Of a stretch of 64,000 nucleotides of DNA, positions 39,904 to 64,000 are shown piece by piece. This stretch comes from Thermoplasmata archaeon (GTDB lineage Archaea > Thermoplasmatota > Thermoplasmata > GCA-020350865). Position 1 is the stretch's first letter. The number at the start of each line of letters is the position of its first letter. The position numbers were made by a program, and so were the translations under genes. Location: NCBI GenBank assembly GCA_020348445.1, contig CP070751.1, positions 628,321-692,320 of the forward strand. Reading direction: 5' to 3'. The notes beneath the pieces are model-generated. The model was given only the letters and a program-made list of their open reading frames with translations. It was not told where the DNA came from and did no database searches.

Positions 39904-39920
39904 ATAAAAAATAATATAAG

Positions 39921-40069
39921 TGCTCCCGTCGGGATTTCCGAGCCGTGGGAGGAAATGGAGTGGTGAGTCCCTCACCACGGGCATTCGAACCCGAGTCGTC
40001 GGCTGTCCTTGGCAATTTTAGGAAAGCCTCGAAAGGCCGAAATGATTGGCCGGTCTACACTACGGGAGC
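39921..40069 (-). tRNA. tRNA-Glu(TTC) with two introns (37/38: 40005-40029; 59/60: 39935-39983)
   Basis: GCTCCCG/CGGGAGC acceptor; removing 25-nt and 49-nt inserts gives a 75-nt cloverleaf; BHB-type junctions. Confidence 0.9.
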
Positions 40070-46597: not shown

Positions 46598-46730
46598 TAT
46601 ATTCTTTAAAAGGTCATTAAGACTAAACCATTGCCCTCCATCCAAAACCCCCTCCTCCCACCCAATAAAAGAGATTTTAAAAATGGGATGACTATCTATT
46701 GGATGAAATTAAAATCCCACAAGAAGTGGC

Positions 46731-46847
46731 TGACGGCGATCCCTGCTTCCCATGGGCTCGCGCACCATAGTACAACAGGGAACGCTGGTGGACTTAACTT
46801 CTGGGTTCGGAATGAGACCAGGTGTAGCCCCACCGCTATGGCCGTCA
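46731..46847 (-). rRNA. rrf: 5S rRNA (stand-alone)
   Basis: Reverse complement TGACGGCCATAGCGG...CACCTGGTCTCATTCCGAACCCAGAAGTTAAG...GCCGTCA; ends approximate. Confidence 0.93.
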
Positions 46848-47030
46848 TACCTCTTGTAAACCGGGTTATATCCGAGCCTTTATTTATAGCTTTCTTTTAC
46901 TGTAAAAACCCATAAAATCCCATTCTTTTCCGTTAATTTAGCCTTTTTTTCACACCATAAATTCTATATATAGAATAGGATATAACCGCACAAAACCAAG
47001 ATTTCTTATTCAATAACTGGGGTACATGGC

Positions 47031-50470: not shown

Positions 50471-50797
50471 ATGGAAGTTGAGATAATATCTAAAAAGGAA
50501 AATCCAGTGATTGAAAGGCTGGAGGTGAATTTCAAGGTTTCACATCCAAAGGAAGTCACGCCAAAACGCAAGGAGGTCAGGGACGAGATTGCAGCACAAC
50601 TAAAGGTTCCAAAGGATAGGATAGTCATAGACAACATGCAACCTGAGTTCGGAAAGCCAGAGACACTGGGCTATGCAAAAGTTTACAAGAATAAGAATGA
50701 TGCCCTCAAAACCGAATCAGAAGCTGTCCTGAAAAGGAACAATCTTTTCGAGGAGAAAAAGGAGAAGGGTGAAGAGAAGAAGGAAGGGGGCAAGTGA
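50471..50797 (+). CDS. rps24e: 30S ribosomal protein S24e
   Basis: [23 protein letters not shown]. Confidence 0.95.
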
Positions 50798-51024
50798 TGT
50801 CGAAGGTGGAACATTACGAGGTTTCGGATGACAAACTCGTTAGAAAGAAGCAGACCTGTCCTAAGTGCGGGGATGGTGTGTTTTTGGCAGAGCATTCAAA
50901 CAGGGTTTCCTGCGGAAAGTGCGGGTATACAGAGTTTAAGAAGAAGGAGAAGCCCAAGAAGGAGAAGAAGGTGGAGGAAGCTCCTGTTCCCGAAACTGGG
51001 GCACCCAGCCTATTTGACGAGTAA
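50797..51024 (+). CDS. rps27ae: 30S ribosomal protein S27ae
   Basis: [13 protein letters not shown]...CGKCGYT. Confidence 0.96.
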
Positions 51025-51032
51025 ATTCTTGT

Positions 51033-51181
51033 GGGCCTGTGGTGTAGCAATCCAGGCAGGAAACTGCTTGGACTGCAGTGGATATCACTGGGGCCTCCGG
51101 AATCCCTTTTTATGGATGGGGTGAGCCCCAATCCCGGGTTCAAATTGTGTCATTGGGCACATGAAAATCCCGGCAGGCCCG
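51033..51181 (+). tRNA. tRNA-Arg(CCG) with three introns (D-loop 51050-51078; 37/38 51101-51123; 59/60 51145-51167)
   Basis: GGGCCTG/CAGGCCC acceptor plus G73; removing 29+23+23 nt gives a 74-nt cloverleaf; each insert forms a BHB/BHL. Confidence 0.9.
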
Positions 51182-51197
51182 CTTCTTGTTATTTGTT

Positions 51198-53903
51198 TTA
51201 CAGAGGGACCACCCACTCACATTTGGTTTTGGCGTGGATGTAGTATCCTCTTCCTATTTCGAAATTGTCTGTTGAGCCCATCTTTTCCCATTTTTGAATC
51301 ATGGAGTTAAATGTCCATATTGCATCCACATGCGTGTCGAAGGTGAGGTTGTTCAATCCTTCGGTTCTATTGTGTCTAGTTAGAGAGGGGTAACCAACCA
51401 TGTTCCAGCCAGAATGAAGGGTAATTGTTTTGTTTTCAGAAGGTTGGGTGCCGTTGTAGAGGAAAATCGTGTCTCCAGGTTGGGTGATGTGAATCCAGAA
51501 GCCCATGGATTCGTTTAACTTGAAGAGATCATTTCCATAAGGTTTCCCCACTTTGTAATGCTTCCAGGGATCATTATTGTCAGTGATATCATAGAATTGA
51601 ACAGCATCATACCAGCCGTCGATTGAACCGAGAACTCTTGTTAGGTTCTGTTCTTCTTGAATCAAAGGTATGGAGATGAGATTCCAGCCTTGTTTCAATA
51701 TTAAATAGTTATTAGGTGGTGTATGGGGATTCATAAGAGGGTAGTTATCTTGTGCTCCACCTCCTCCATATAAATTTGTGTAAGGTGTATCTCCAATTCC
51801 GTCACTACCTGAAATGTTCTGATTAGGACCTTTATTATTATCAATCCCACTGTAATCTGACCAATAATTCCCACCCCAGGGGTAGCCATTATCCCAGTTA
51901 TTATCACCTTGATCATCATAAGCTTGATTTGTGTTTGCTGTAAGATTATTGTGATAGACTCTATTATGCGATGCCATTCTGATATAGATACCATACAATT
52001 TATTCGAATTAACATCGTTGCATGTAATGCTGTTATTAGATGACTCGTAAATAAAAATACCATAATCACTTTTTGATACATTGTTTTTGGTAATTAAATT
52101 ATTATTGGACGGATATCCAGTAAAGATACCACTGCCATTTTTTGTTGACACATTATTGTTGATAATGGTATTATATGATGATAAGTAAAGATAGATTCCA
52201 CTGTTGTAAAGGCCATTATTACCATTATTCGACACATTGTTGCTAGTTATGTTATTATAAGAAGAGGTGAATAAGTAAATTCCGCTGTCAAAGAGACCAT
52301 TACGTCCGTTATTCAAAACATTATTATGAGAAATGTTGTTTGACATACCTTTATTTAAATAGAGACCTTGATAATCATTTGAATAAACATTGTTACTTAC
52401 AATTTGACTATTTGATAGCCATGTAAAATAGAGGCCGTACATATTGTTTAGAAATATCTCGTTATTTTTAATTGTAATATTTGATGAATAAGCAACAATA
52501 ATTCCAACATCGGTGTTATTTATCTGTAGATTTCTCACATCGAAACTGGTACAGTTAGCAAGAACGAGTTGTCCGATGGAAATTCCATTGATATCTGTAT
52601 TATTACTATCCTTATAATAAAACAAAGGTTTTCTGTTAACAAGATTGTTAGATGGAATAATGTGGGAATTAAAATCTCTAATTCCTCCTCCTGAGATTAC
52701 AATTCCATTATTGATGAATATGTTATTGTCTAAGGTATTGTTACTCGTGGTTTCAAGAGAAATTCCACAATTGTCATTATTCAATATATTATTATTGGAA
52801 ATATTACTATGACTAGATTGCCATGATATCATACCCTTATAATTCTTTGATACATTGTTGTGGGTTATATTATTGTAACGTGATTGTGAAAGGTGTATCC
52901 CGCACTCATCATTTAGTGAAATATTGTTATCAGAAATATTGTTGTAATGCGAGCTAGTACCGAGAACGATTCCATTATAATTTTGTGAAATATCGTTATT
53001 GCTTATGTTGTTTCTTTGAGAATATGAAAAATAAATTCCTGACCAATTATTTTGGATTATATAGTTGTCAGTAATGTTGTTGTCATCTGATTGCCAAAGC
53101 CTGATACCATTTAAGTTCATTGTTACATTATTGCTATGAATGCTGTTATTTGAAGAAAACCAGAGATAAATTCCCCTATCTTCATTCAATGTGACGATAT
53201 TTTCTGTGATTTTATTATTTGAAGAATCTTGAATTGAGATGCCATCTCCAACGCTCAATGACATATAGTTACCTAAGATGTTATTCTCACAAGAAAAAAA
53301 GAGATTTATACCGTGCCAATTATATGATCCATTGTTTTGTGTAATATTGTTCCCATTAGAATATGATAGAGAAATACCAATTGCTCTGTTGTGAGAGATA
53401 TTGTTGTTAAAGATTCTATTTTCACTAGAATATCGGAAAGAAATCCCGTCCTCGTTTCCCGAGATGTTATTATTGTATATACTACAGTTATGAACTGCAT
53501 AAAGGTCAATTCCCGCATCTCCACTAGTTTGACGACTGCCTGTGATGGTAAAACCAGTAATGTTTACCCAATCCACGTCTACGTAAACAACATCCCCAAT
53601 ACCGCTACCGTTAATTATCGTCGATTCACGATTTTCTCCTGTTAAATTCATCGTCTTATTTACTATCAAATATTCATAATAAATTCCACTATAAACAAAG
53701 ACAGTATCTCCCTCATCAGCGTTATCAATGGCCTCTTGTATACTAGTGTAATTCTCAGCTGGATTGCCGGGCCCCTCTCCAGGCTCATCGTCAACGTAGA
53801 TTATTGTGGAACCCATAATAACAGGTGCAACCTCAACCAAGATCACCACGAATCCAAACACCATCGCCAAGCTCAACCAGATTGCAGCTATCTTCCTGTT
53901 CAT
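51198..53903 (-). CDS. Large secreted NosD/CASH parallel beta-helix repeat protein
   Basis: IYVDD...YTSIQEAID, more than 20 N.I..N...GI repeats, GGNYWSDY, C-terminal GWNLISIPL/GWNMVGYP domain. Confidence 0.88.
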   Translation of the reverse strand: MNRKIAAIWLSLAMVFGFVVILVEVAPVIMGSTIIYVDDEPGEGPGNPAENYTSIQEAIDNADEGDTVFVYSGIYYEYLIVNKTMNLTGENRESTIINGSGIGDVVYVDVDWVNITGFTITGSRQTSGDAGIDLYAVHNCSIYNNNISGNEDGISFRYSSENRIFNNNISHNRAIGISLSYSNGNNITQNNGSYNWHGINLFFSCENNILGNYMSLSVGDGISIQDSSNNKITENIVTLNEDRGIYLWFSSNNSIHSNNVTMNLNGIRLWQSDDNNITDNYIIQNNWSGIYFSYSQRNNISNNDISQNYNGIVLGTSSHYNNISDNNISLNDECGIHLSQSRYNNITHNNVSKNYKGMISWQSSHSNISNNNILNNDNCGISLETTSNNTLDNNIFINNGIVISGGGIRDFNSHIIPSNNLVNRKPLFYYKDSNNTDINGISIGQLVLANCTSFDVRNLQINNTDVGIIVAYSSNITIKNNEIFLNNMYGLYFTWLSNSQIVSNNVYSNDYQGLYLNKGMSNNISHNNVLNNGRNGLFDSGIYLFTSSYNNITSNNVSNNGNNGLYNSGIYLYLSSYNTIINNNVSTKNGSGIFTGYPSNNNLITKNNVSKSDYGIFIYESSNNSITCNDVNSNKLYGIYIRMASHNRVYHNNLTANTNQAYDDQGDNNWDNGYPWGGNYWSDYSGIDNNKGPNQNISGSDGIGDTPYTNLYGGGGAQDNYPLMNPHTPPNNYLILKQGWNLISIPLIQEEQNLTRVLGSIDGWYDAVQFYDITDNNDPWKHYKVGKPYGNDLFKLNESMGFWIHITQPGDTIFLYNGTQPSENKTITLHSGWNMVGYPSLTRHNRTEGLNNLTFDTHVDAIWTFNSMIQKWEKMGSTDNFEIGRGYYIHAKTKCEWVVPL

Positions 53904-63794: not shown

Positions 63795-64000
<206 letters not shown>

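Follow-up and report, generated by a model that had tools for sequence, protein, structure and literature searches.

The tRNA-Arg(CCG) locus

The window analysed here, a stretch of 64,000 nt, belongs to the 5.16-Mb genome of an uncultured Thermoplasmata archaeon. The gene row rpoE-spt4-DUF359-rps24e-rps27ae lies upstream of what is very probably a functional tRNA-Arg(CCG) gene with three introns (51033-51181, plus strand). The features of the locus are as follows.

50797-51024, plus strand: rps27ae (Pfam Ribosomal_S27 (S27a), E 3.2e-19), immediately 5' of the tRNA gene
51033-51049, plus strand: exon 1, with the acceptor 5' strand, nt 8-9, the 5' strand of the D-stem and the first four bases of the D-loop
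51050-51078, plus strand: intron 1, which interrupts the D-loop behind mature nt 17 (Sprinzl 17/17a) and is 29 nt long
51079-51100, plus strand: exon 2, with the remainder of the D-loop (G18 G19 A20), the D-stem 3' strand and the anticodon stem 5' strand
51101-51123, plus strand: intron 2, inserted at the canonical position 37/38 and 23 nt long
51124-51144, plus strand: exon 3, with A38, the anticodon stem 3' strand, a 4-nt variable region, the T-stem 5' strand and T-loop nt 54-59
51145-51167, plus strand: intron 3, which interrupts the T-loop at 59/60 and is 23 nt long
51168-51181, plus strand: exon 4, with T-loop nt 60, the T-stem 3' strand, the acceptor 3' strand and the discriminator G73
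51182-51205, plus strand: T-rich trailer, CTTCTTGTTATTTGTTTT

The tRNA gene begins 8 nt after the rps27ae stop codon, and no clear archaeal TATA box was seen upstream of it. Because the stop codon lies so close, the tRNA probably shares a transcript with rps27ae or is transcribed right after it. CCA is not encoded; the CTT directly 3' of G73 is kept in congeners, and the T-rich trailer is likely to be an archaeal oligo-T terminator. Directly 3' of the gene and convergent with it lies an open reading frame for a 901-aa protein with five NosD/right-handed beta-helix stretches (window 51198-53903, minus strand).

Excision of the three introns yields a 74-nt cloverleaf that ARAGORN, run on the spliced sequence, calls as tRNA-Arg(ccg). 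The predicted exon junctions are GTGTAGCA joined to TGGATATC (exons 1/2), CCTCCGG to AGCCCC (2/3) and GGTTCAAA to TCCCGG (3/4). The spliced product has stems of 7/4/5/5 bp, a 7-nt T-loop (TTCAAAT), G18G19, A20 and a discriminator G. It scores 20 of 21 stem pairs and 12 of 12 conserved bases, with U8, A14, G18G19, U33, R37, G53-T54-T55-C56, A58 and C61 all satisfied and CCG as the anticodon. A20 is an identity element for ArgRS, and the D-loop, AGCATGGATA, supplies it as G18 G19 A20. The original prediction had placed a three-intron tRNA-Arg(CCG) gene here, and each element that it described is in place: the spliced 74-mer is identical to the string that it gave, and half of the gene is indeed intronic (75 of 149 nt).

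Splice motifs of the three introns

A strict hBHBh' motif was defined as a 4-bp central helix that is flanked by one 3-nt bulge on each strand and lies between an outer and an inner closing helix, the cut being placed after the second bulge base (marked here by a caret). Introns 2 and 3 are of this kind. In intron 2, the central helix CTCC/GGGG is flanked by the bulges GG^A and TG^A and closed by the inner helix ATCC/GGAT and, as outer helix, the anticodon stem (inner and outer runs of 4 and 6 bp). In intron 3, the central helix TTCA/TGAA is flanked by AA^T on both strands and closed by the inner helix TGTGTC/GGCACA and the T stem (6 and 5 bp).

Intron 1 lies one base 5' of G18. It has a 4-bp central helix (GTAG/CTGC), a 5' bulge (CA^A) and a 9-bp inner helix (TCCAGGCAG/CTGCTTGGA, capped by GAAA), and no helix closes its 3' site: 3' of AG^T, the chain passes through GGATATC and then reaches the two remaining D-stem pairs. 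The D-loop intron fails the strict definition, with an outer helix of 0-1 bp in all orthologs and a 3' site in a loop of ~10 nt, and it therefore belongs to the relaxed HBh' or bulge-helix-loop (BHL) class. Such a relaxed site had been proposed from the sequence of this gene, and the same form recurs in every lineage that has the intron (families f1, f2, f15 and f16). All three BHB-type motifs, in the D-loop, at 37/38 and at 59/60, were recovered as previously described.

Detection of the gene and control for chance

The expectation that standard annotation would miss this gene was borne out with the two finders that were run. The unspliced 149 nt gave no match with ARAGORN, whether introns were disallowed or allowed, and no match to the Rfam tRNA model at the gathering threshold or at E<=10. 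The absence of finder calls means that the gene is hidden from ARAGORN and the Rfam model, not missing. The genome shows comparable gaps: Arg-GCG was called by neither ARAGORN nor the Rfam model, and Arg-UCG, Lys-UUU, Thr-GGU and Val-CAC were not called by ARAGORN.

The genome was also screened by excision, an approach that used single and paired excisions together with the anticodon-loop intron option of ARAGORN and then refined the candidates locally, allowing up to three excisions. The screen covered 30% of the genome, outside long ORFs. In it, tRNA-Arg(CCG) scored as well as the intronless tRNAs of the same genome. Strict BHB-like candidates are common (~48,000 per strand in the 5.16-Mb genome), and a control was run on 600 random 530-nt genomic windows. 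The 323,409 excision combinations gave one ARAGORN call, which scored 16.5 of 21 stem pairs and 8 of 12 conserved bases.

Neither ARAGORN and Infernal over the whole genome, nor a BLAST search of the genome with the gene, nor the excision screen over its 30% revealed a second Arg-CCG gene or paralog. Other Arg-CCG calls, at tRNA-Pro, tRNA-Gln and similar loci or at 1592455, were mis-splicings with poor scores, and none survived refinement. Of the codons in 1,205 long ORFs, 2.2 per 1000 are CGG, which is 7% of those for Arg. Because the tRNA-Arg(UCG) gene that is also present could in principle read CGG by wobble, we do not claim strict essentiality for tRNA-Arg(CCG).

Conservation of the gene across the class

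All four congeners searched carry the entire 149-nt gene with the same three introns, at 78-85% identity. In the five-genome alignment, the exons are 96% identical, and introns 1, 2 and 3 are 71%, 61% and 62% identical, respectively. Exon 1 (mature nt 1-17) has a single variable position (nt 9) among the five congeners, and exon 2, which ends C32 U33 C34 C35 G36 G37, is invariant among them. RNAalifold recovered the acceptor stem and all three splice motifs from this alignment. Compensatory double changes were found at four pairs, all of them in intron inner helices and two of them in intron 1.

Beyond the genus, rps27ae adjoins the Arg-CCG gene in 23 of 30 loci of relatives, and these genes are therefore positional orthologs. 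Their intron states, established with the excision script and manual reading, are listed below.

D-loop, anticodon and T-loop introns: genus g1, five genomes
D-loop and T-loop introns: f2, f15, f16
Anticodon and T-loop introns: f4, f8, f13
Anticodon intron only: f14, f17
No introns: f3, f6, f9, f10, f12

The intronless orthologs are called by ARAGORN as tRNA-Arg(CCG) and match the spliced sequence through all three junctions. Since they are uninterrupted at the predicted junctions, they fix the splice sites. Exon and intron also co-vary in the T-loop helix across families, TTCA occurring with TGAA and TTCG with CGAA (CGAG in one genome). Additional introns that seemed to lie at relative position 2 or at >=71 (L012-L014, L016, L021, L022, L025, L032) were rejected as acceptor-end artefacts.

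Other intron-bearing tRNA genes in the genome

The excision screen also recovered the following tRNA genes with introns in the same genome.

tRNA-Glu(UUC), window 39920-40069, minus strand: 25-nt intron at 37/38 and 49-nt intron at 59/60
tRNA-Met: introns at 37/38 and 59/60
tRNA-Arg(GCG): intron at 59/60
tRNA-Cys: T-loop intron
tRNA-Thr(GGU): relaxed D-loop intron
tRNA-Val(UAC): D-loop intron and intron at 37/38
tRNA-Lys(UUU): three introns
tRNA-Arg(UCG), G000:C1:4029909-4030156, plus strand: 29-nt D-loop intron and ~145-nt intron at 37/38

Neither ARAGORN nor the Rfam tRNA model made a call for the tRNA-Glu(UUC) gene when run on the window. The cloverleaf score performs poorly on class II tRNAs (Leu, Ser), so this census of intron-bearing genes is partial.

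The D-loop introns of tRNA-Arg(UCG) and tRNA-Arg(CCG) occupy the same site, are both 29 nt long and are identical at 20 of 29 positions, with compensatory changes in the stem. This suggests either an ancestry before the divergence of the isoacceptors or copying between paralogs. Separately, the long 37/38 introns of tRNA-Arg(UCG) (G000:C1:4029977-4030121) and tRNA-His (C1:797603-797714) share a module of ~113 nt with 76% identity, which consists of several hairpins with compensatory changes and has just two copies in the genome.

The splicing endonuclease

Searched in full with the two EndA Pfam domains, the genome yielded a single EndA ORF of 362 aa at G000:C1:548043-549128, minus strand (L001:1459-2547, minus strand); no second EndA-like gene with either domain was found in the genome. 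The ORF contains tRNA_int_endo_N twice and tRNA_int_endo twice. Aligned to the triad of M. jannaschii, the catalytic Tyr/His/Lys are present in the C-terminal unit only (KYG...EHA...VKK), and the N-terminal unit has neither the catalytic Tyr nor the His. The best solved full-length match is 5X89 (E 5e-39), the artificially fused beta-alpha enzyme of M. kandleri.

Three loops, the CSL (L1), the ASL (L2) and L3, have been tied to efficient cleavage of relaxed motifs by Kaneta et al. (PMC5829648, PMC3488258), and none of them is present in the catalytic unit according to the alignment. This unit aligns to the loop-less M. jannaschii EndA with a single 2-residue gap, and is gapped opposite the CSL of A. 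pernix and S. tokodaii as well as opposite the ASL and the catalytic-His-loop insert of ARMAN-2. With no separate alpha and beta genes and no three-unit chain, the enzyme is neither (alpha-beta)2 nor epsilon2. Because the chain has two units, with the triad in the C-terminal unit and the loops absent, EndA is alpha'2-like by its architecture as read from the sequence. The original prediction had taken the BHL site as a sign of a broad-specificity EndA, different from the alpha'2 type, and had named the endA architecture as a check. That check goes against it: the sole EndA is a two-unit, alpha'2-like chain without the CSL, ASL or L3, and the inference from site to enzyme type fails.

An EndA of this form (350-365 aa) occurs in nearly all of the 40 class relatives, with or without non-canonical Arg-CCG introns, and no genus-specific insertion was found among them. 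In f14 and f18, EndA matches were found only in open frames of ~290-300 aa. The N-terminal unit contains a Lys/Arg-rich loop, FPRGGKPSKNPSKFW, at residues ~115-130, which is kept in most of the class. Its position is homologous to the catalytic-His loop, and it exceeds its counterpart in the beta unit of M. kandleri by ~5 residues. RtcB is present once in the genome.

Proposed processing and alternative explanations

For cleavage, ligation and splicing order we infer the following scheme. A 149-nt precursor with three protein-spliced introns would be processed by EndA acting as a homodimer of the two-unit chain, which would cut all six sites two bases into the bulge or loop flanking a 4-bp helix. 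At 37/38 and 59/60, EndA would meet a classical bulge-helix-bulge, with the anticodon stem and the T stem, respectively, as the closing helix. At the D-loop site, the canonical 5' bulge and 13 stacked base pairs may dock the EndA dimer, and the 3' cut would then fall in an open loop that is held by the tRNA body and positioned by the fixed active-site spacing across the 4-bp helix. RtcB would ligate the four exons, and CCA would be added later.

A different account accepts that the gene is real while holding that the lone EndA cannot process the D-loop intron unaided, so that a cofactor, an RNA chaperone or a second nuclease would be needed, or a reshaping of the site by prior removal of the other introns or by a base modification. 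The enzyme lacks every loop linked to relaxed-motif cleavage, loop-less enzymes perform poorly on HBh' or relaxed sites in vitro (PMC5829648, PMC3488258), with the alpha'2 EndA of A. fulgidus hardly cutting a relaxed motif (PMC3488258), and an outer helix at the 3' site is impossible in all orthologs that have the intron. However, neither Pfam domain reveals a second EndA-like gene, and the same form of EndA occurs in families with and without these introns, so that no extra lineage-specific factor is indicated. Moreover, the EndA of M. kandleri, which has no such loop either, excises a D-loop HBh' intron from full pre-tRNA, though inefficiently, and leaves a mini-helix uncut (PMC5829648). We consider a need for such help unlikely. 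By analogy, the most economical reading of the D-loop intron would follow the M. kandleri precedent, in which a loop-less enzyme removes an HBh' intron. The conserved relaxed D-loop introns in single-copy tRNAs would argue against a strict specificity of EndA, and the host enzyme may be functionally broad.

Two further explanations question the gene itself. The silence of the standard finders and the existence of a tRNA-Arg(UCG) gene would both suit a decaying tRNA pseudogene that has accumulated insertions, with CGG being read by tRNA-Arg(UCG). This is very improbable, however, given exons that are 96% conserved, a near-perfect spliced cloverleaf, splice motifs retained in all three insertions through compensatory changes, the persistence of the same introns over several families and the finding of no intact alternative Arg-CCG copy. 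That the cloverleaf is a product of chance deserves still less weight. Enough candidate excisions will yield some cloverleaf, and the abundance of strict BHB-like motifs on each strand lends this idea a certain force, but the control produced one weak call, and the gene occupies the same position after rps27ae in relatives. The comparative data refute a chance pattern, and a functional three-intron gene is the reading that we retain with high confidence.

The natural two-unit enzyme of most sampled Thermoplasmata may represent a fifth functional solution, namely a loop-less yet efficient cutter of relaxed HBh' sites. We put this forward tentatively, as a real possibility that we would not yet bet on. 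The determinant for relaxed sites might then be something other than the CSL, ASL and L3, a candidate being the class-wide conserved loop of the N-terminal unit, FPRGGxPxKxPSKxW. Were the fifth-solution reading true, the rule linking disrupted tRNA genes to a prior gain of a specific loop in the catalytic unit would fail, and an entire euryarchaeal class would have an unrecognised set of hidden tRNA genes.

Comparison with known multi-intron tRNA systems

Multi-intron archaeal tRNA genes are already known as a kind; it is the lineage and the enzyme setting that are unexpected here. According to Sugahara et al. 2008, as relayed in PMC4033280 and PMC4090602, tRNA genes of Thermoproteales carry up to three introns each. 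The present gene resembles those of Thermoproteales (Crenarchaeota), which have up to three BHB-type introns per gene, at canonical and non-canonical sites, with strict and relaxed motifs and in many genes. However, the host belongs to Thermoplasmata and its EndA is a single two-unit chain without a CSL, whereas theirs is an (alpha-beta)2 heterotetramer with a CSL. Multiple-intron genes have also been listed for N. equitans, M. kandleri, M. thermautotrophicus, Korarchaeum, ARMAN-1/2 and a red alga, a listing from which Thermoplasmata are absent (PMC4033280).

The pre-tRNA-Glu(UUC) of M. kandleri (PMC5829648; PDB 5X89) is similar in being euryarchaeal, in having a D-loop HBh' intron and in being served by an EndA without a specific loop. 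The M. kandleri enzyme, however, consists of two separate subunits that were fused only artificially for the crystal, whereas the fusion in the host is natural, and the non-canonical introns of the host are numerous, up to three per gene. ARMAN-2 (Ca. Micrarchaeum), which is placed near Euryarchaeota, shares a single-chain homodimeric EndA and many non-canonical introns, including T-loop introns (PMC3239211, PMC3488258). Its epsilon2 EndA has three units and an ASL with K161, which confers broad specificity, in contrast to the two units and no ASL in the host. In the red alga Cyanidioschyzon merolae, tRNA-Ile(UAU) combines D-, anticodon- and T-arm introns in one gene (PMC3728597, PMC9602550), but this is a eukaryotic nuclear gene with a eukaryotic splicing endonuclease, and the likeness implies no shared ancestry.

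Reviews hold that euryarchaeal tRNA genes have at most one intron, a strict BHB at 37/38, and that multiple or relaxed introns accompany EndA types with a specific loop (PMC4090602, PMC4033280, PMC5829648). The introns described for Euryarchaeota whose EndA is alpha4 or alpha2 are all single and of the canonical BHB form (PMC4090602). The gene reported here contradicts these statements, as do other tRNA genes of the same genome and orthologs from several families: up to three introns per tRNA gene, with a conserved relaxed D-loop site among them, occur together with a loop-less two-unit EndA as the only one encoded. A limited literature search returned no report of multi-intron tRNAs in Thermoplasmata; such a report may already have been published.

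Counts of tRNA genes made with ARAGORN or the Rfam tRNA model come out too low for these genomes. The range of intron states at one syntenic locus (none, AC, D+T, AC+T and D+AC+T) provides a clean data set on intron gain and loss, and the host EndA offers an easily testable case for how the substrate range of this enzyme is set.

Other tRNA and rRNA genes

In the same window, a 5S rRNA gene was found at 46728-46849 (minus strand) and the 3' end of a 16S rRNA gene at 63795-64000 (minus strand). The two lie ~17 kb apart on the same strand, and the 5S gene therefore does not adjoin that 16S gene. Elsewhere in the genome, at G000:C1:4640570-4643566 (minus strand), a 3-kb stretch holds ~25 closely packed tRNA genes. 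Most of them are intronless, and several duplicate anticodons found elsewhere; this cluster could be a mobile-element or viral tRNA array.
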